The notes beneath the pieces were generated by a model. It was given only the letters and a program-made list of their open reading frames with translations. It searched no databases and was not told the origin of the DNA. A stretch of 64,000 nucleotides of DNA from Syntrophales bacterium (GTDB lineage: Bacteria > Desulfobacterota > Syntrophia > Syntrophales > UBA2210): NCBI GenBank assembly GCA_963662405.2, contig CAXXKT010000001.1, positions 864,001-928,000 on the forward strand, read 5' to 3'. The position numbers and the translations under genes were made by a program. Positions 13,499 through 20,888 of the stretch are shown piece by piece (position 1 is the stretch's first letter; each line of letters opens with the position of its first letter).

Positions 13499-14065
13499 AT
13501 GGAACGGTGCGCCTGGGTGACCAGCGATCCGTTGTATATCCGGTACCATGATCGCGAATGGGGGGTGCCGGTCCATGATGACCGAAAACTCTTCGAGTTC
13601 CTCCTCCTTGAAGGGGCCCAGGCCGGCCTTTCCTGGATCACCATATTAAAAAGGAGAGAAGGGTATCGAAAGGCATTTGCCGGGTTTGATCCGGAAAGGG
13701 TGGCAGGATTTACCCAAAAGGAAATCGACCAACGTCTGAAAGATCCGGGTATCATCCGGAACAGGCTCAAGATCAACGCGGCGGTCACCAATGCCCGGGC
13801 ATTCTTGAAGATACAGGCGGAATTCGGATCGTTTGACGCCTATGCCTGGCGGTTTGTCGACGGGAAACAAAAAGTGAACGCCCATGCCCGAGCGGATACA
13901 ATCCCCGCCACGTCGACGGAATCGGATGCCTTTTCAAGAGACCTGAAACAGCGGGGCTTTAAATTTACCGGATCGACGATTATCTACGCCCACATGCAGG
14001 CCACGGGCATGGTCAACGATCATCTGGTCTCCTGCTTCCGGTACCACGAAGTGATGGAGGTCTGA
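13499..14065 (+). CDS. tag: DNA-3-methyladenine glycosylase I
   Basis: RCAW...YHDREWG...LEGAQAGLSW...GIIRNRLKI...GMVNDHLVSC. Confidence 0.95.
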   Translation: MERCAWVTSDPLYIRYHDREWGVPVHDDRKLFEFLLLEGAQAGLSWITILKRREGYRKAFAGFDPERVAGFTQKEIDQRLKDPGIIRNRLKINAAVTNARAFLKIQAEFGSFDAYAWRFVDGKQKVNAHARADTIPATSTESDAFSRDLKQRGFKFTGSTIIYAHMQATGMVNDHLVSCFRYHEVMEV

Positions 14066-14082
14066 GCCCCTTTTTCGTTGTG

Positions 14083-14105
14083 GCAAAAAGCAAGACCTGA
14101 CCCCA
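14083..14105 (+). repeat. 23-bp REP-like element, left copy of an inverted pair
   Basis: GCAAAAAGCAAGACCTGACCCCA is the exact reverse complement of 18148-18170. Confidence 0.85.
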
Positions 14106-14236
14106 TGGATTTCCCCATGGATTTACAGAAATTCTCATTCTCCATTCCCCTAAAAAACTAGGGACATCCATGATTTCCTGATTTATTCGATTTTTCCCAT
14201 ACGTAATGGTTTGGCGTATCGGTGTGTCCGTGTAAA

Positions 14237-14268
14237 AAAGGTCAGGATCTATTACGATCCTGACCTTT
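14237..14268 (-). terminator. Intrinsic terminator of the IPTL-CTERM gene
   Basis: AAAGGTCAGGATC tattac GATCCTGACCTTT, with T tract on the minus strand. Confidence 0.8.
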
Positions 14269-14297
14269 CTGCCTTCAAGTCGTTTATTTCATGATTG

Positions 14298-14936
14298 CTA
14301 TGCAGTGGTGTGTTTTCTCCTCATAGATACAATCGCAGTTCCAGCCACCAGCAGGGCAAAAAGGATCATGCCCCATTCAGAGAGGGTGGGAATGTTAATC
14401 AGATCCTCGATCACTACGTCATCTACCAACCAAAACCAATCCCAGTCTGGTGCAACATAGTGGAATCTGATCAGTACGCTGGCTTGCCCAATGTAGGCGG
14501 AAAGATTAATACTTACCTGATTCGGCCCGACATCAACTCCATCGTAGTGCAGCAGCGTCGTCCAATTGGTCCCCCCATCTAAGCTGATATCCACATATGC
14601 ATCGTCATAATCGCTTAACGATTCAAAATAATTCTGGAAACGCAAAAAGGGATGCGTCGTCCCTACCAGGCTGAAAGCGGGGGTGAGGAGCGAAGCATCC
14701 ATTGCATCGTAATAGTCCGAGTCCGCATCCGCCGCATAGCCGGATCCGTTCGTATAGTTCGTCTGCCCGGTGGTTGCCGTACTCTCCCAATTGTATGTGC
14801 CGCTGTGTATCACACGGGACCAACCTGTGGGCGGGAAACTCCCCTCAAAATCTTCCTGAAGTATCACTGCGGCGGCGGCGGGGTTGAACCAGAAAAGCTG
14901 AAGAATCAAGACAAGCGCAAAAACTTTCGTTTTCAT
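14298..14936 (-). CDS. Secreted beta-sandwich (MAM/adhesin-like) protein with IPTL-CTERM sorting signal
   Basis: Signal peptide; EDFEGSFPPTGW...LVDDV; C-terminal IPTLSEWGMILFALL...RRK. Confidence 0.9.
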   Translation of the reverse strand: MKTKVFALVLILQLFWFNPAAAAVILQEDFEGSFPPTGWSRVIHSGTYNWESTATTGQTNYTNGSGYAADADSDYYDAMDASLLTPAFSLVGTTHPFLRFQNYFESLSDYDDAYVDISLDGGTNWTTLLHYDGVDVGPNQVSINLSAYIGQASVLIRFHYVAPDWDWFWLVDDVVIEDLINIPTLSEWGMILFALLVAGTAIVSMRRKHTTA

Positions 14937-15217
14937 TAGCGTCCCCCCTTTTAAGCGTTGGGATTTATGCTAAAAAACTCGTTATGCTTGCTGCTTTTCC
15001 TAAAGACAATCATTTGATGATTTCGGGCTACTAAAAAACTCCTTTGGGGTCAAGAAAAAACCACAAAAATTCTCCACAGAAACTTTTTGGTTTCATCTGG
15101 TAGTTGCCATATTTGATCGATTAGTCACTCTCCAGCTTTGTAGGTGTCGTGAATTGCCAAAGGTATGGTATCCGGTCTCAACCTTTCTATCGATTCAGAT
15201 TGTTCAATGTCGAGACC

Positions 15218-15382
15218 TGCCCCTGTTTGTCTACTGAGACAGGAGAGCGTTTTGTATGACGCTGTAGCCCTTTTCTGCCATCCTTTCCTCGATATCTTTG
15301 ATATGCTCCTTCCCCTTCGTCTCTAGGATGGAGGATACGTTGATCTCGCCGATGGGCGATCCGCCGGAATAATGATGGTAAA
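15218..15382 (-). pseudogene. ilvA: Diverged copy of the ilvA 3' end
   Basis: Aligns with about 19646-19811, with substitutions and a small indel. Confidence 0.9.
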
Positions 15383-15569
15383 CGCCCATGCCCGCGCGGA
15401 CAAGATCCCCGCAACCACAAAGGAATCGGATGCCTTTTCAAAGGACCTGAAACAGCGGGGCTTTAAATTTACCGGACCGACCATTATCTACGCCCACATG
15501 CAGGCCACATGCATGGTCAACGATCATCTGCTCTCCTGCTTTCGTTACCACGAAGTGATGGAGGGGTAA
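15378..15569 (+). pseudogene. tag: Copy of the tag 3' end
   Basis: 192 bp colinear with 13874-14065 (VNAHARAD...FRYHEVME). Confidence 0.9.
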
Positions 15570-15623
15570 CGTCCGTTCCTCATAGCTGCTTCCTCCTACC
15601 ATGAATTTATATAGAGTGGTGTA

Positions 15624-15785
15624 TAATCGATTAGTCGATGTTCATGGGAAGGCGGGAGGACTCAGTGCTTCCTGGGCGTTAGAGCCCTCATTTCAGTATG
15701 TCCCAAGCCTCTGTGAACCATAATAGGTTGGTTGGATCATTGAATCCTTGTCACGCTGGAGGATTGGTCTGGAGGCTATGGTTCC
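15624..15785 (+). ncRNA. IS110 bridge RNA (5' hairpin, target-binding loop, donor-binding loop)
   Basis: Hairpin ATCGA/TCGAT 15626-15639; stem-loop 15640-15718 with internal loop carrying TGCTTCCT and TTTCAG; stem-loop 15718-15781 with GGTTGGTT and GGAG. Confidence 0.8.
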
Positions 15786-15818
15786 TGCTTTTCCTTTCAT
15801 TCGTTAGGAGGTGAAGCG

Positions 15819-17021
15819 ATGTCAGGATTAACGGACAGCTTTAATGATTTTGTTGGAATAGATGTTTCCAAAGATAAATTCGACGCCTGCGGAATCACAA
15901 GAGATGCAGCACAGCTCTTCCAGTTTTCCGCGAGCATGGATCGTAAGGGCTTCGATAAGTTGAGGGAACATCTTGCTTCTGTTTCCATTTCGTCCGTTTT
16001 AATCGGGATGGAATCAACAGCATCTTATCATATCAATCTTTTCTCGTACTTGATTTCAGAGGGTTACCGAGTGATCATCATTAATCCTCTGCTGATTTCC
16101 AATTACGTGAAGATGCAGCTCCGGAAAACCAAGACAGATAAGAAGGATGCCGCTGTTATTGCCATGTTTCTTCTTGCACACAGAAATACCCTGAGCCAAC
16201 GATCATATTCTCCTTTGATTTCCGAGCTTCGGGATCTTTCACGTCAGCGGGAGAATCTGGTTGATGAGATGACCGCTCTGAAGATCAACATCAAACGGCT
16301 CCTGAATATCACTTTTCCGGAATTGGAGCATATGACGTTGGTCTTTACGAAGTCTATGCTGAAGCTTCTCCAGCAATACCCATCTGCTGTTGCTCTGAGA
16401 AGTGCGGATCCTATTCAATTGTCCCAGACGCTCATTGCAGATTCCTATGGGCACAAAAGAGAAGCATTTACCGCGGAGTTAATGAAGGCAGCTAGAGCGT
16501 CGGTCGGTACCCACAGTGCTGCGAAGGAAGTCATTCTTAAACAACAGGTGACCTTGCTCCTTCACTTTGAAGAGGACCTGCAAGAGATAACCGGCATATT
16601 AATTGAGATGAGCCGAAATCTGATGGAAGAAGACATAAACATTCTGACTTCCATAAAGGGCATTGGTAACAAAACTGCTGTTAATTTTCTCATTGAGATG
16701 GGGGGCGACATCAATCAGTATGATGATTCCGGGAAGATCATTGCCATGGCGGGCTTAGATCCGGCTGTTTACCAGTCAGGCAAACATGAAGGTAAAGGCA
16801 AGATCACGAAACGAGGGAACCGCCATTTACGGAGAGTCATCTGGATGATGGCAACCAGGGTGATCAACTATAGCGATGTTTTCAAGACTTACTACCTCAA
16901 ACGTAGAAAGGAGGGATTGCCGTATAAGATGGCAGTATTGGCCACCGCTCACAAATTGATCCGTGTCATCTATGCCATGCTGACGCAACGGACAACTTTC
17001 TGCCCACAGATAAATTCATGA
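15819..17021 (+). CDS. IS110 family transposase/recombinase
   Basis: DEDD RuvC-like motifs GIDVSK, MESTASY, KTDKKDA; AGLDPAVYQSGK with the catalytic Ser; KRGNRHLR. Confidence 0.95.
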   Translation: MSGLTDSFNDFVGIDVSKDKFDACGITRDAAQLFQFSASMDRKGFDKLREHLASVSISSVLIGMESTASYHINLFSYLISEGYRVIIINPLLISNYVKMQLRKTKTDKKDAAVIAMFLLAHRNTLSQRSYSPLISELRDLSRQRENLVDEMTALKINIKRLLNITFPELEHMTLVFTKSMLKLLQQYPSAVALRSADPIQLSQTLIADSYGHKREAFTAELMKAARASVGTHSAAKEVILKQQVTLLLHFEEDLQEITGILIEMSRNLMEEDINILTSIKGIGNKTAVNFLIEMGGDINQYDDSGKIIAMAGLDPAVYQSGKHEGKGKITKRGNRHLRRVIWMMATRVINYSDVFKTYYLKRRKEGLPYKMAVLATAHKLIRVIYAMLTQRTTFCPQINS

Positions 17022-17294
17022 TAGTTGACTGAAAGGGAATGTTTCGTAATTTTCGAGGGAATGCCTTCTACAAACAGTATTCATGCTTGGCTGCTGCAAT
17101 TTTTCCCATGTTTCACCAACTTGGTTTTTGGTCTTTTGTACCACAAAGGACCCAATGGTCGAAGTTCAATTATGCTCGATACCATGGTGGAACTTTCTCT
17201 TTTCATTTTTCACTCATTGCAGTAGGATTACACAAAAGTGCGGGGAATAGCCATCCAATATACTAATTGTTAGAAGGCATAAAAGGGAAACAGC

Positions 17295-17639
17295 ATGGAT
17301 AGATCAGAAGCAAAGAAGAATTACAAGCAGTCCAGTCGCCCCATGGGGGTATATAGAATAAGCAATACGCAAAATGGTAAAGCATACATCGGTTTCAGTC
17401 TGGATTTGCAGGCCAAGATTAATAGGCACAAAGCAGAGCTGAAATTTGGAAGCCATAGAAACTCAGAGTTGCTTAATGAATGGAAAACGTTTGGAGAATC
17501 GTCGTTTGAGTTTGAGGTTTTGGATGAACTTGATCTTGATGAAAAATCAAAGGCAGACCCTATTGAAGAATTGAATATCCTCAAGGATATGTGGATTAGC
17601 AAACTCGAGGAAGCTGGAAATGCGGTCGTTTCCATCTAA
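17295..17639 (+). CDS. GIY-YIG nuclease family protein in an integron-type gene cassette
   Basis: GVYRISN..NGKAYIG...RH...FEFEVLDE; preceded by GTTAGAA (17269); stop codon lies inside ATCTAAC (17634-17640). Confidence 0.85.
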   Translation: MDRSEAKKNYKQSSRPMGVYRISNTQNGKAYIGFSLDLQAKINRHKAELKFGSHRNSELLNEWKTFGESSFEFEVLDELDLDEKSKADPIEELNILKDMWISKLEEAGNAVVSI

Positions 17640-17731
17640 CATGCGGCGGATGACCTGCCCCAAGGGGGACAAGTCCATCCGCTGGTTCGGGAGGCGCTAC
17701 GCGCCGACCGAAACAGCTCAGGGCAGCGTCC

Positions 17732-17790
17732 GCTGAACAAGGCTTTTGCAGCGGAGCACAATAGGCGCCCGCTGAAAAGCGGCATTCTAC
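17732..17790 (+). other. Degenerate attC recombination site
   Basis: GCTGAAC ... GCTTTT(G)CAGCGG / CCGCTGAAAAGC with one unpaired G ... ATTCTAC (decayed GTTRRRY). Confidence 0.6.
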
Positions 17791-17921
17791 TACACTTCCA
17801 ACGGTAATTCTCAGTATTCCCCTTTGATCGAAATCATTTGTTAGTAGGTGTCGTGAATTGCCAGAGCTATGGTATCCGGTCTCAACATTTCTATCGATTC
17901 AGGCTGTTAAATGTCGAGACC

Positions 17922-18139
17922 TGCCCCTCTTTGTCTACTGAGACAGGAGGGAGCTTCGTATGACGCTGTAACCCTTCTCTGCCATCCTTTCTTCGATGTC
18001 TTTGATATGCTCCCTCCCCTTCGTCTCCAAGATGAAGGACGCGTTGATCTCGCCGATGGGCGATCCGCCGGAATGATGATGGTGAAAGACTTCCAGGAGA
18101 TTGGCGCCTGTCTCGTGAAATACATGCAGTACGGCCTCG
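17922..18139 (-). pseudogene. ilvA: Near-identical copy of the ilvA 3' end (ACT domain part and stop codon)
   Basis: 218 bp colinear with 19646-19863; about 6 mismatches counted by eye. Confidence 0.93.
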
Positions 18140-18147
18140 TGGTATAT

Positions 18148-18170
18148 TGGGGTCAGGTCTTGCTTTTTGC
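18148..18170 (-). repeat. 23-bp REP-like element, right copy of the inverted pair
   Basis: TGGGGTCAGGTCTTGCTTTTTGC is the reverse complement of 14083-14105. Confidence 0.85.
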
Positions 18171-18194
18171 TATTTCAATTAAAACGACCCTTAA

Positions 18195-18356
18195 AATACA
18201 AAGCCCCGCCTCTCATTGTGAGAAACAGGGCTGTATGGCGATCAGATCATAATCCCCTCGGGTACAGAGGTTCAAAGGCACATGATGAGTTCACGATCGC
18301 ATAGAGTACATTAAACCACTAACGCCATGAGGGTATCTTGTCAAGGGACATTACGG
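18195..18356 (-). ncRNA. Repeat family copy B (promoter + putative sRNA with SD-ATG-ATC-TGA + terminator)
   Basis: See copy A; hairpin AGCCCTGTTTCTCA caa TGAGAGGCGGGGCT followed by TTGTATTTT. Confidence 0.55.
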
Positions 18357-18610
18357 TGGGATGGTCACGGGGGAGTCGTCGCATCCGTCCAGACCCCTTC
18401 TCTTGAGCACCTGTCCCCCAGATTTCCGGAGATTTATGGAACCAATAATCAATGCAATTCTGTTGACTATTATAAGCTCCGAGTAATAAAAGGAGGTGTG
18501 AATAAGACACTGCCGAAAGACTAACAGATACACACAACGCTCGTTTTGGTCATCTGATTCTCGCGTACTTCGCTTAAAAACTTTGTTAGGCTAATAACAA
18601 GGGGGGGATT

Positions 18611-19444
18611 ATGACAGCGAAGAAAAAAACGTTTCATTGGAGAGGGTGGACCACGTTTGTGGTCACCATATCCTTTATCGTAGACACCCTGTCGGGAATT
18701 ATTCTTTACATTGCTCCTCCGGGAAGAATCGCCAACTGGACCAACTGGAAGATCTGGGGGCTTACAAAAGAACAGTGGGGAGCGGTGCACACCATATTCG
18801 GGTATGTACTGCTATTCATTGTGGCTGCCCATCTGTATTTCAATTGGAGGATCTTTGTCAATTTCCTCTGGAACAAGGCAAAAAAGGTTTTGAATCTGAA
18901 GTGGGAGCTGGCCCTGTCCATCGTGGTCTGCCTCGTTATATTCCTTGGATCTATCTGGAATATCTTCCCTTTCAGCACCATCATGGAAATCGGGGAGCAC
19001 TTCAAACAGGGTTGGGAACAAAGCGAGGCAAAAGCGCCGCTGGCACACGCGGAGCTGCTCACCCTTACTGATTTTGCCGAGAGCATCAAGGTGCCGGTGG
19101 AACAAATAACGGAGGTACTGAAATCCCGAGGGTATACCTTCGCGGGCACTCATCAGACCGTCGGGGACATTGCCGAGGCCAATACTGTTTCTCCCAACAA
19201 GCTCTATGAGGATATTAAGGCCGGTGGGGTTAACCCCGTTGCTCCTCAAAACGTTGAGGGCTCCGGGATGGGGAAGAAAACTCTGATGGAAATTTGCGAA
19301 GAACAGGGTTTGTTCCTGGAAAAGGTCCTTTCACGGTTGAAAGAACAGGGTGTTGAGGCCAAACCCGATGATCGCCTGAAAGACCTGGCCACACAACTCG
19401 GGAAGCAGCCTACGGAGATGCTTACTATCCTTCGCGGAGAATAG
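18611..19444 (+). CDS. DUF4405 (cytochrome-b-like) membrane protein with C-terminal repeated helical domains
   Basis: SGIILYIAPPG...WGAVHTIFG...AHLYFNW (two TM His); repeated TL.D/E....V..L...G motif. Confidence 0.8.
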   Translation: MTAKKKTFHWRGWTTFVVTISFIVDTLSGIILYIAPPGRIANWTNWKIWGLTKEQWGAVHTIFGYVLLFIVAAHLYFNWRIFVNFLWNKAKKVLNLKWELALSIVVCLVIFLGSIWNIFPFSTIMEIGEHFKQGWEQSEAKAPLAHAELLTLTDFAESIKVPVEQITEVLKSRGYTFAGTHQTVGDIAEANTVSPNKLYEDIKAGGVNPVAPQNVEGSGMGKKTLMEICEEQGLFLEKVLSRLKEQGVEAKPDDRLKDLATQLGKQPTEMLTILRGE

Positions 19445-19448
19445 AGAT

Positions 19449-19572
19449 GATCAGGCCATAATCCCCCCTCCGGGGATGACGGCTGTCCAGAGGCACATAT
19501 GATGAGTTCAAGCTCAGCAGAGTACGCTAAACCACTAACTCCATTATGATATCTTGTCAAGATATATTACGG
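19449..19572 (-). ncRNA. Repeat family copy C (promoter + SD-ATG-GCC-TGA; terminator missing)
   Basis: Colinear with copy B; includes the 17-bp palindrome ATATCTTG-T-CAAGATAT over the -35. Confidence 0.5.
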
Positions 19573-19658
19573 GGAGAGGTCCAGGGGTGGAATCCGGCTT
19601 CGGCATGTGACGCAGGGAAGCGGCTGCGCGTGTGACTGCCACGCTTGCCCCTCATTGT

Positions 19659-20888
19659 CTACTGAGACAGGAGGGAGCTTCGTATGACGCTGTAACCCTT
19701 CTCTGCCATCCTTTCTTCGATGTCTTTGATATGCTCCCTCCCCTTCGTCTCCAGGATGAAGGATACGTTGATCTCGCCGATGGGCGATCCGCCGGAATAA
19801 TGATGGTGAAAGACTTCCAGGAGATTGGCGCCTGTCTCGTGAAATACGTGCAGTACGGCCTCGAGGGCGCCGGGGATGTCTCTGACCCGTGTCTCAACCT
19901 GCATGATGCGGCCGTCGAACGCGAGCCCCCGGGCGATTATGCGGGAGATGAGCGTGACATCTATATTCCCGCCCGACACAACGGCTACCACCTTTGTGCC
20001 CTCCACACCGGGCACCCGGTTGTTGATAAGGGCCGCTACGGGCGCCGCGCCGGCACCCTCTACCACGATCTTTTCCGTCTCCAGGAGATGGAGGATGGCA
20101 TTGGCGATCTCGTCGTCCGTTACGGTCACGATCTCATCCACATACCGGCTGACGATATCGAGCGTGATCTGCCCAACCCGCTTCACCGTGATACCTTCGG
20201 CGATCCTCGACGCGCCGGGGGCCGTGACAACGGAACCGGCCTCGACCGACCGTTTCATCGAAGGACAGTCTGCCGTCTCGACACCGATGACCCGCACCTG
20301 AGGCCGGATGCTCTTAAGATACAAAGCGATGCCGGAAATCAGGCCGCCTCCTCCGATGGGGACGACAACGGCGTCCAGGTCCTTCGACAGTTCGTTGTTT
20401 ATCAGTTCAACGGCCACCGTTCCCTGGCCCGCAATCACCAGAGGATCTTCGAAGGGATGGATGTAGGTTTTCCCTTCTTTTGCGGCCAGGAGGAGGGAGT
20501 GCTCGTAGGCCTCGTCAAAATTCTCCCCTTCAAGGACCACGGCGGCGCCCCAGTACTGTGTCGACGTCACCTTGACGATCGGTGTATTCCGGGGCATGAC
20601 AATAGTGGCGGGGATGCCGAGCCGTCTTGCATGGCAGGCAAGGCCCTGCGCGTGATTGCCCGCGCTTGCGGCGATGACGCCCCGGCGACGCTCTTTCTCA
20701 TCGAGGGAGAGAAGTTTGTTCAGAGCGCCCCGTTCCTTGAAAGACCCCGTGATCTGGAGATTTTCAAGCTTCATCATGACATCGACGCCGCACCGGTCCG
20801 ACAGCCGTGATGATCGGGTCACGGTTGTCTCGACAATATGGGACCGTATCCTCTCATAGGCCCGCTCCACATCTTCTCTCGTCACCAT
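19659..20888 (-). CDS. ilvA: Threonine ammonia-lyase (medium form with ACT domain)
   Basis: KLENLQITGSFKERGA, ASAGNHAQG, PIGGGGLISG, SGGNID; start taken at MVTRED. Confidence 0.93.
   Translation of the reverse strand: MVTREDVERAYERIRSHIVETTVTRSSRLSDRCGVDVMMKLENLQITGSFKERGALNKLLSLDEKERRRGVIAASAGNHAQGLACHARRLGIPATIVMPRNTPIVKVTSTQYWGAAVVLEGENFDEAYEHSLLLAAKEGKTYIHPFEDPLVIAGQGTVAVELINNELSKDLDAVVVPIGGGGLISGIALYLKSIRPQVRVIGVETADCPSMKRSVEAGSVVTAPGASRIAEGITVKRVGQITLDIVSRYVDEIVTVTDDEIANAILHLLETEKIVVEGAGAAPVAALINNRVPGVEGTKVVAVVSGGNIDVTLISRIIARGLAFDGRIMQVETRVRDIPGALEAVLHVFHETGANLLEVFHHHYSGGSPIGEINVSFILETKGREHIKDIEERMAEKGYSVIRSSLLSQ

Follow-up and report, generated by a model that had tools for sequence, protein, structure and literature searches.

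An IS110-group bridge recombinase element of a Syntrophales bacterium and the motif-bearing sites that its clade enters

The element and its ends

The window analysed here is a stretch of 64,000 nucleotides from a Syntrophales bacterium (contig CAXXKT010000001.1, positions 864,001 to 928,000), and its region 15587..17036 carries what is, as read from the DNA, an intact and recently mobile bridge recombinase element of the IS110 group, 1436 bp long with one core. The parts of the element and of its site that are given by window coordinates, the neighbouring GIY-YIG gene and second-type site included, lie on the + strand. An uninterrupted open reading frame (ORF) for a recombinase of 400 aa (15819..17021) is flanked by non-coding ends of unequal length, 224 nt on the left and 7 nt on the right, which is the IS110-group layout with the long end upstream of the gene. 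The left end (15595..15818) contains the right donor arm CCTAC, a sub-terminal repeat, a -10 box, the predicted bridge RNA and a ribosome-binding site. At the other extremity, the left donor arm TAGTTGA and the right CT core (17022..17030) contain a -35 box, TTGACT, at 17025-17030. On the outside, host DNA provides the left target half TGCTTC (15587..15592), followed by the left copy of the CT core (15593..15594), and the right target half GAAAG (17031..17035).

These boundaries come from comparison with a second copy (G000:C1 128734-130183), which is 99.9% identical, with 1 mismatch in 1450 nt that falls within the flank. CT stands at each end of both copies; the flanks of the second read CTTC-CT on the left and CT-GAAAG on the right. 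Since the copies share only CTTC (left) and GAAAG (right) outside the CT cores, the element itself is confined to the length given above. An initial annotation of the window, made from its letters, had pointed to copies with other ends or other targets as the finding that would count against it; in the second copy ends and target agree.

For the wider comparison we took as relatives the best 80 of 278 genome loci and the best 80 of 517 metagenome loci, and located the left end in 140 loci, both own copies included. Among the genome loci with both ends located the core is CT in 64 of 65 and CA in one, a count in which motif-based end finding favours CT; C stands at position -1 in 68 of 71 distinct left flanks. 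Empty members of the site family described below contain a single CT, that is, a 2-nt core without a longer target duplication. A 5'-truncated relative (L005, G000:C2 328461-328931) retains 64% identity over residues 248-394 and an identical right end. Sequencing run X5 contains a relative at about 90% with the same boundaries and other flanks, and a search of 60 related genomes found no close relative of the recombinase at an E-value of 1e-60. At L086-L089 one right flank and two different left flanks surround near-identical elements, which amounts to a rearrangement at the core.

The recombinase

The claim of an intact IS110 bridge recombinase is borne out by the protein. Besides its uninterrupted ORF, it has the DEDD RuvC-like N-terminal domain (PF01548, E-value 9e-42) and the Tnp C-terminal domain (PF02371, E-value 1e-25), and its catalytic residues are in place: D15, E65, D107 and D110 align to D11, E60, D102 and D105 of IS621; E65, D107, D110, S320 and G321 are invariant and D15 is kept in 39 of 40, S320 being the serine of the G--P----SG motif. 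By sequence as well as by predicted fold (mean predicted local distance difference test score, pLDDT, of 85), the nearest solved relatives are ISCro4 and IS621, with fold matches at E-values of 3e-15 and 8e-15, respectively. The coiled coil carries a helical insert of roughly 75 residues (~166-240) for which IS621 has no counterpart. Proteins of such length are common in IS110s of unrelated hosts, with 1520 plasmid records covering at least 80% of the recombinase query.

A second IS110 family, 27% identical to this recombinase, is present in nine copies (G000:C1 387975, 1518049, 2085060, 2113123, 2216839, 2568221 and 25410; C2 378496; C3 116723).

Bridge RNA, guides and junction

The structured body of the bridge RNA is predicted at 15649..15791 from an alignment of 32 left ends. 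An enclosing stem (15649-15656/15784-15791) surrounds a target-binding loop (15658-15703) and a donor-binding loop (15707-15776). In this two-domain model with its enclosing stem 96.9% of cells are paired, as against at most 63.6% in slid controls; two-sided change occurs in 8 of 32 pairs, a value reached by 3 of 500 shuffles, and RNAalifold recovers the same helices. The single sequence folds no better than its shuffles (z -0.88), and its minimum-energy fold (-58 kcal/mol) buries the guides that the open-loop model (-32 kcal/mol) frees; the single sequence thus fails to support the two-loop structure, which rests on the alignment.

Of the fold drawn for the left end in the initial annotation, the two domains of stem, internal loop and hairpin are sustained by covariation in the alignment. 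The long 5' hairpin is not: in the single-sequence fold it spans 15599-15646 and hence begins upstream of the -10 box of the junction promoter, so that a transcript from that promoter would keep only a small hairpin at 15627-15640 (-3.4 kcal/mol). The RNA leader is not conserved, 31 of 81 distinct leaders folding to -3 kcal/mol or better. In the left end of L015 a long perfect hairpin (~-49 kcal/mol) is inserted in the leader. The one Rfam match within 14000-19600, at 21.9 bits against a cut-off of 51, was rejected.

Both target guides named in the initial annotation were found: TGCTTCCT is present at 15587-15594 and again at 15666-15673, and TTTCAG at 15691-15696 faces CTGAAA at 17029-17034. 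When the 224-nt left end is shuffled, both appear together in 3 of 20000 cases. The left target guide (15665..15673) matches its own flank at 8 of 9 positions and the flank of the second copy at 6 contiguous ones. The right guide is followed by the target-loop handshake bases 15697-15698 (together 15691..15698, assigned by covariation), of which U15697, opposite the A at donor position 7, is invariant in 32 of 32. Across the clade the guides covary with the flanks: core excluded, the left guide matches its own flank at 5.35 of 7 positions against 4.33 when permuted (121 loci), and the right guide at 3.44 of 4 against 2.40 (103 loci), with 0 of 5000 permutations reaching either value; these are related, non-independent loci, and the permutation results are not probabilities. 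Flanks shorter than 100 nt or with N, loci with unparsed loops, and 2 near-duplicate left and 10 near-duplicate right flanks were left out, and five rows parsed one base off were kept in the guide analysis.

Changes in the guide accompany changes in the flank in L017-L020, L054, L058, L059, L069, L070 and L081. A short working guide follows from the fact that the outer positions on the left agree with the flank in only some half of the loci (54 to 79 of 121), and position +2 on the right in 76 of 103. The 'own specificity' previously ascribed to the element needs qualification, as the inner 9 positions of its guide are common to most of the clade and point at a multi-copy site family with a distal motif beyond the guide's reach. 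L035 and L036, from the same genome as L017-L020, combine a leader near that of L014 with the target loop of L017-L020, and their flanks fit on one side or neither; they are possibly a natural target-loop swap, or insertions in trans.

In the donor loop, GGTTGGTT occupies 15726-15733, as had been read, within a left donor guide (15725..15733) that has a mismatch at position 1 and wobbles at positions 2, 7 and 8. The wobble-rich character of this guide was confirmed over 118 loci, where position 8 is U:G in all 118, position 7 is A or G in all 118 and position 2 is A or G in 111; to judge from these loci, the wobbles are a clade-wide feature. RNAalifold pairs part of the guide (15729-15732) with a conserved stretch across the loop (15750-15753); the pair survives with either base at the A/G wobble position, a possible explanation of the wobbles.

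GGAG is indeed found at 15771-15774, where the right donor guide had been placed. This proved to be a strand of the stem closing the donor loop, pairing with 15707-15712 and kept in 99% of cells. The true right donor guide is the GGAG at 15758-15761, since it reads GGTG in L080, the sole relative with a CA core, and since the donor-loop handshake dinucleotide GA (15762-15763) comes next (together 15758..15763). In the 137 loci compared for the handshake, its first base complements target position 7 in 136, including two loci with T or G there, and its second complements target position 6 in 120. Comparable complementarity is described for the handshake guides of IS621 in PMC11208158. Covariation of the donor guides is thin, with changes only at L037 and L159 (donor position 6) and L080 (core).

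The proposed junction promoter TTGACT-17-TAGAGT has the right geometry, by which the -10 box TAGAGT is assigned to 15612..15617. Among the 140 left ends a 5-of-6 match to TATAAT occurs 64, 34 and 11 times at spacers of 17, 18 and 19, respectively. No sigma-70-type promoter was found in the integrated copy. A perfect TATAAT at 15622-15627 lies 27 bp from the -35 box of the junction and might serve the integrated copy as an additional weak start for the RNA; a 5-of-6 match at that spacing is seen in 32 of 140 left ends. The circle-junction 15-mer, as a string, has 0 matches in the genome, and the contigs of four of the 23 sequencing runs, with a small share of the RNA run, are without an end-to-end joint. 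In these contigs one RNA contig from a relative (15 differences in 155 nt) spans 15675-15831.

The 11-bp sub-terminal inverted repeat matches at 11 of 11 positions between its left arm (15600..15610) and its right arm (17010..17020), the latter overlapping the last codons and the stop codon. The distances from repeat to core are 5 and 8 nt, and the arms tend to change together (mean 8.2 of 11 against 6.7 permuted; 79 distinct end pairs). Protein family and fold, catalytic residues, the second copy and guide-target covariation together argue for the IS621-type bridge-RNA mechanism with a CT core that the initial annotation had put forward.

A distal motif beside the core

Stacking of the right flanks brings out conserved positions at about +31 to +58 beyond the core; the left flanks are without comparable signal. 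This distal motif lies at a fixed position 3' of the core, outside the reach of the guides. Its centre, GATTWC-N5-GWAATC at +37 to +53, is roughly palindromic and lies, on just one side of the core, in a 28-bp stretch some 45 bp away. A profile built from 63 genome flanks gives +9.75 bits at offset 0 on 46 held-out metagenome flanks and negative values at all 63 other offsets; shuffles under the same profile score -7.3 bits (sd 0.67; best -5.4 of 2000). At a cut-off of 6 bits, used throughout, 83 of 111 distinct flanks pass leave-one-out (75 of 89 in the main guide class), and 5 of 111 pass when the profile is placed 40 bp further on. At the window's own site the motif (17060..17087) scores 5.3 bits and is one base closer than usual; the site of the second copy scores 17.5 bits. 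The 230 bp behind the window core align with empty sites, with 65.6% identity over 227 columns to G000:C1 249891 (E-value 7e-19).

Several identities for the motif were considered and rejected. It is no part of the element, as the identical copies diverge right after the core, and no second guided site, as it is unchanged when the right guide changes (L058, L059, L081). It is also not tied to one neighbouring gene family, the 85 nearest ORFs representing many unrelated Pfam families. Comparison by eye with consensus sequences gave no fit to IHF, Fis, dif, res or sigma-54 sites. The left flank of L081 has, upstream of the insertion, an 11-mer that we take to be identical to the XerC arm of E. 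coli dif; this is a single case and probably chance.

A pre-existing family of intergenic sites

The last four bases of TGCTTC together with CT-G form CTTCCTG, the 7-bp core of a family of sites. A combined score finds 32 empty sites in this genome and 0 and 0 in two shuffled genomes. The right-flank profile by itself gives 17 genome matches above 26 bits (0-2 in five controls), mostly preceded by CTTC-CT, which was not scored; the flank of L005 ranks fourth among the genome sites (31.5 bits) despite having A, not G, as its first base. A strict pattern is present in 29 of 61 related genomes, with 0 matches in the reversed control. Across the phylum it occurs in 26 of 301 genomes, and among hosts of relatives in 4 of 5; matches number 57 in G047, the highest count, 45 in G301, 23 in G457, 21 in G126, 20 in G236 and 5 in this genome. 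The empty sites here, along with genomes that have the strict pattern and in which the IS110 was not found at an E-value of 1e-60, indicate that the sites pre-exist insertion. They are intergenic; of 78 empty sites that were reconstructed, 72 fall outside long open frames. Of the first long ORFs behind 32 sites, 14 run on the strand of the site and 18 on the opposite one. The empty target put forward in the initial annotation, GCTTCCTGAAA, has 2 exact matches in the genome, both inside long ORFs, motif-less and unoccupied.

A second type of site consists of the motif followed, about 30 bp on, by the core GTAGGTG (peak at offsets 56-58 above 12 bits). In one orientation the order tends to be, with exceptions: a first-type site, 1.3-7 kb of cargo, a second-type site, 150-300 bp, and the next first-type site. 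The window contains one such unit, in which the IS110 element occupies the first-type core, a small GIY-YIG gene (17295..17639) is the cargo between the two site types, and a second-type site (17787..17850) closes the unit, with its motif at 17787-17814 (15.2 bits) and its core GTAGGTG at 17844-17850. An arrangement of both cores on one symmetric 100-bp unit was considered and is not general: of 115 first-type sites, 2 have GTAGG at +94 or +99.

Both cores are also found duplicated, as 7-bp repeats, around elements with recombinase pairs: CTTCCTG around the recombinase-pair element at G000:C1 131293-133417, and GTAGGTG around the tyrosine-recombinase pair in L206. The motif follows recombinase-pair elements in 5 of the 6 closest of 25 loci, the sixth locus ending early, and in 5 of 137 left flanks the IS110 lies directly at the end of such an element. 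Single tyrosine recombinases end at core and motif in 8 of 8 loci with at least 57% identity, four of the eight having been chosen for site adjacency, and in 0 of 14 more distant ones. We infer that the sites are likely to be att-like ends of gene modules handled by tyrosine recombinases. The single recombinases of ~280 aa (G000:C2 404829-405665, which is L246; L248-L250; L265-L268) end ~110-125 bp before a CTTCCTG core with motif and are candidates for the module enzyme or for a further parasite.

Three guide classes of the IS110 clade aim at three positions of this site structure. The main class targets CTTCCTG; the CAC-CT-AC class (L058, L059, L081) enters the second core from the other strand, at the mirror distance to the motif; the GTAATC-CT-CAA class (L017-L020, four copies of one relative) enters directly beside the motif, at +54/55.

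Choice of the insertion site

The explanation that best accommodates these data, and which we regard as very probable, is that of an IS110-group element with a CT-core bridge mechanism that has a pre-existing family of motif-bearing sites as its target. By extension from IS621, the joined ends would create a promoter and the left end would yield the bridge RNA; a recombinase tetramer would then pair loop 1 with the target and loop 2 with the circle junction, strands being exchanged at CT. The target would be the 7-bp core CTTCCTG of the intergenic family, not any guide match. As to how such sites are preferred, we lean towards a protein bound at the motif, either the host's or that of the module system, which would bend or open the core and thereby favour insertion there, the guide giving only the inner 9-10 bases. 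The counts point in this direction: the motif accompanies 54 of 64 insertions, where non-coding sites that fit the guide equally well (with wobbles) would predict 6.1, and 37 of the 43 insertions with at least two guide mismatches, where about 2 would be predicted. A broader form of this idea, which we offer tentatively and consider somewhat short of probable, is that the whole clade needs a second signal that is neither RNA nor hairpin. A protein-bound palindrome 45 bp from the core would then license bridge recombination, and this palindrome would derive from an undescribed, widespread module system with the 7-bp cores CTTCCTG and GTAGGTG in Desulfobacterota and Nitrospirota, parasitised by at least three unrelated element families.

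Several points weigh against the favoured explanation. The expected counts were taken from this genome in place of the actual hosts, among which the number of sites varies tenfold, so that the enrichment is overstated by an undefined amount; purifying selection was controlled in part, by masking ORFs of at least 150 aa. The motif is absent from its usual place in 28 of 111 flanks, including most of the rare guide classes, and the window's own site is a weak member of the family, below the 6-bit cut-off and at offset -1. L035 and L036 mismatch their own right guide, which suggests that guides may have changed after insertion or acted in trans. The second site type is clear only at high scores (the null gives 33-34 at 5 bits), and the left-right alternation of site types is imperfect. 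Neither a circle junction nor an empty allele of this locus nor a transcript of the element was found among genome strings and the contigs of the four runs.

The guide by itself might suffice, with the recombinase reading the inner CTTC-CT-GWA, the guide having evolved towards an abundant and harmless core, insertions elsewhere having been lost and the motif being a passenger. We consider this unlikely, if the most serious of the alternatives. It draws on the share of family members among the non-coding sites of this genome (21 of 49 for CTTCCTGWA, 9 of 13 for CTTCCTGAAA), on the position of 72 of the 78 empty sites outside long open frames, and on IS621 and ISPpu10, which also have repeats as their targets according to the sources cited below. 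It does not readily account for the motif at 56 of 66 insertions into CTTCCTGWA against the 21 of 49 sites just mentioned, nor for 10 of 12 insertions off this consensus against 7 of 378 sites, nor for the poorly matched insertions (37 of 43). A direct reading of the motif by the recombinase, for instance through its helical insert of ~75 residues, at a set distance from the core, appears less likely again. The fixed offset in the main class, the mirror distance in the CAC-CT-AC class and the lack of residues ~166-240 in IS621 would all suit it; against it are L017-L020, which insert beside the motif in another geometry, the commonness of similar protein lengths in unrelated hosts (the plasmid records above), and the occurrence of the sites in genomes where this IS110 was not found.

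That the sites are promoters or integron leaders, not module ends, the element favouring open or harmless DNA, is in our estimate improbable. The sites are intergenic, and attC-like hairpins abut a few of them (1 of 32 under the strict test, 3 of 32 at an alignment score of at least 7). Yet the first long ORF behind the site shows the near-even strand split given above, and 0 of 93 IS110 flanks pass a strict home-made attC test, which used no covariance model. No family site lies near either integron integrase gene (one intact, one split, at G000:C1 2211990-2212934 and 30608-31553), the DNA upstream of both fails to align with the sites, and the 7-bp cores are duplicated around tyrosine-recombinase elements. 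Gating by a stem-loop in the target DNA, as reported for ISPpu10, we hold to be very improbable: positions 0-13 and 30-43 are weakly related by inverted symmetry (best window z 4.0 of 1420, spread 1.3), but single-strand folding of 60 sites is no better than that of shuffles (mean z -0.2) and the arms of the motif are without covariation, 56 of 1000 permutations reaching the observed value.

Relation to known elements

The mechanism and layout are shared with the IS621 bridge recombinase and its bridge RNA (Durrant 2024, PMC11208160; Hiraizumi 2024, PMC11208158; also PMC13626964). In common with IS621 and ISCro4 (PDB 9t56), the element has a composite active site of DEDD and Ser, a CT core, a bridge RNA in the long left end, the left guide before the right in both loops, handshake bases and a promoter across the joined ends. 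It differs from IS621 in sequence (~21% identity), in length (400 aa against 326 aa, with the helical insert), in its 11-bp sub-terminal repeat as against 2-3 bp, in the conserved wobbles of its donor guide, and in its target, which is a site with a distal motif where that of IS621 is a repetitive extragenic palindromic (REP) sequence.

According to PMC11208160 and PMC11187229, sub-terminal repeats measure 2-3 bp in the IS110 group and 7-17 bp in the IS1111 group. Of the traits of the IS1111 group, our element has the sub-terminal repeat of 11-13 bp (11 of 11) and lacks the downstream RNA and the 7/3-bp extensions: its RNA is upstream, its right end is 7 nt and its repeat-core offsets are 5 and 8 nt, not 7 and 3. 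IS1111-group examples described in PMC11187229 are IS4321/IS5075 at the Tn21 terminal repeats and ISKpn4/ISPst6 at attC. Like these, our element has a sub-terminal repeat of 11-13 bp and would be guided by its RNA into sites at which other mobile DNA recombines or ends; its target family matches none of their sites. ISPpu10 has an extra target determinant, an adjacent 5' stem-loop (10.64898/2026.03.19.712850). The two elements are alike in having a CT core, in tolerating wobbles, in aiming at an intergenic target with many copies and in a determinant that lies beyond the bases paired with the guide; the candidate determinant here is instead a sequence motif 31-58 bp 3' of the core, without a folding signal.

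A further parallel to the proposed mode of insertion is offered by the IS1202 family (dif/pdif) and the Tn5053-type res hunters, DDE transposases without RNA guides that insert at a set distance from a site to which another protein binds. The present element differs from both in being RNA-guided, and its motif, compared by eye with the consensus sequences, is unlike dif or res.

The mechanism is known, and the element stands out by its target. Multi-copy harmless targets as such are familiar, namely REP, attC and Tn21 ends (PMC11187229), and whether IS110 elements exit by cutting or by copying is unsettled in the field (10.1101/2025.10.25.684509; 10.64898/2026.08.31.748434). A literature search, mostly at title level, found neither this site family nor a distal sequence motif in the targets of IS110 elements as the subject of a paper; PMC11208160 has large orthologue tables in which members of the clade may well be listed. 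Genome-editing tools are under development from bridge recombinases, and their weakness lies in the insufficient specificity of a 14-base guide that tolerates mismatches. If the proposed role of the motif is true, a clade that finds the correct site in spite of several guide mismatches, with a separate motif at a set distance, would reveal a further layer of target choice that could be copied. The sites, an apparently undescribed family of putative module ends with dozens of copies in some anaerobe genomes, may constitute a separate system of gene shuffling. Should the motif be a passenger, the element would be an ordinary new member of its group with a well-read guide.

Repeats among the cargo genes

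In the surroundings of the element, the 3' ends of facing methyladenine glycosylase and threonine dehydratase genes repeat at ~90% identity between cargo genes (window 13874-14060 / 15378-15564; 15137-15382 / 17841-18086 / 19646-19810). The cargo between these repeats comprises IPTL-CTERM, GIY-YIG and DUF4405 genes, an arrangement that suggests the tandem addition of units together with host flanks. A perfect 23-bp inverted pair, 4 kb apart, lies at 14083-14105 and 18148-18170; it presumably resembles the REP-type repeats of tyrosine transposases.

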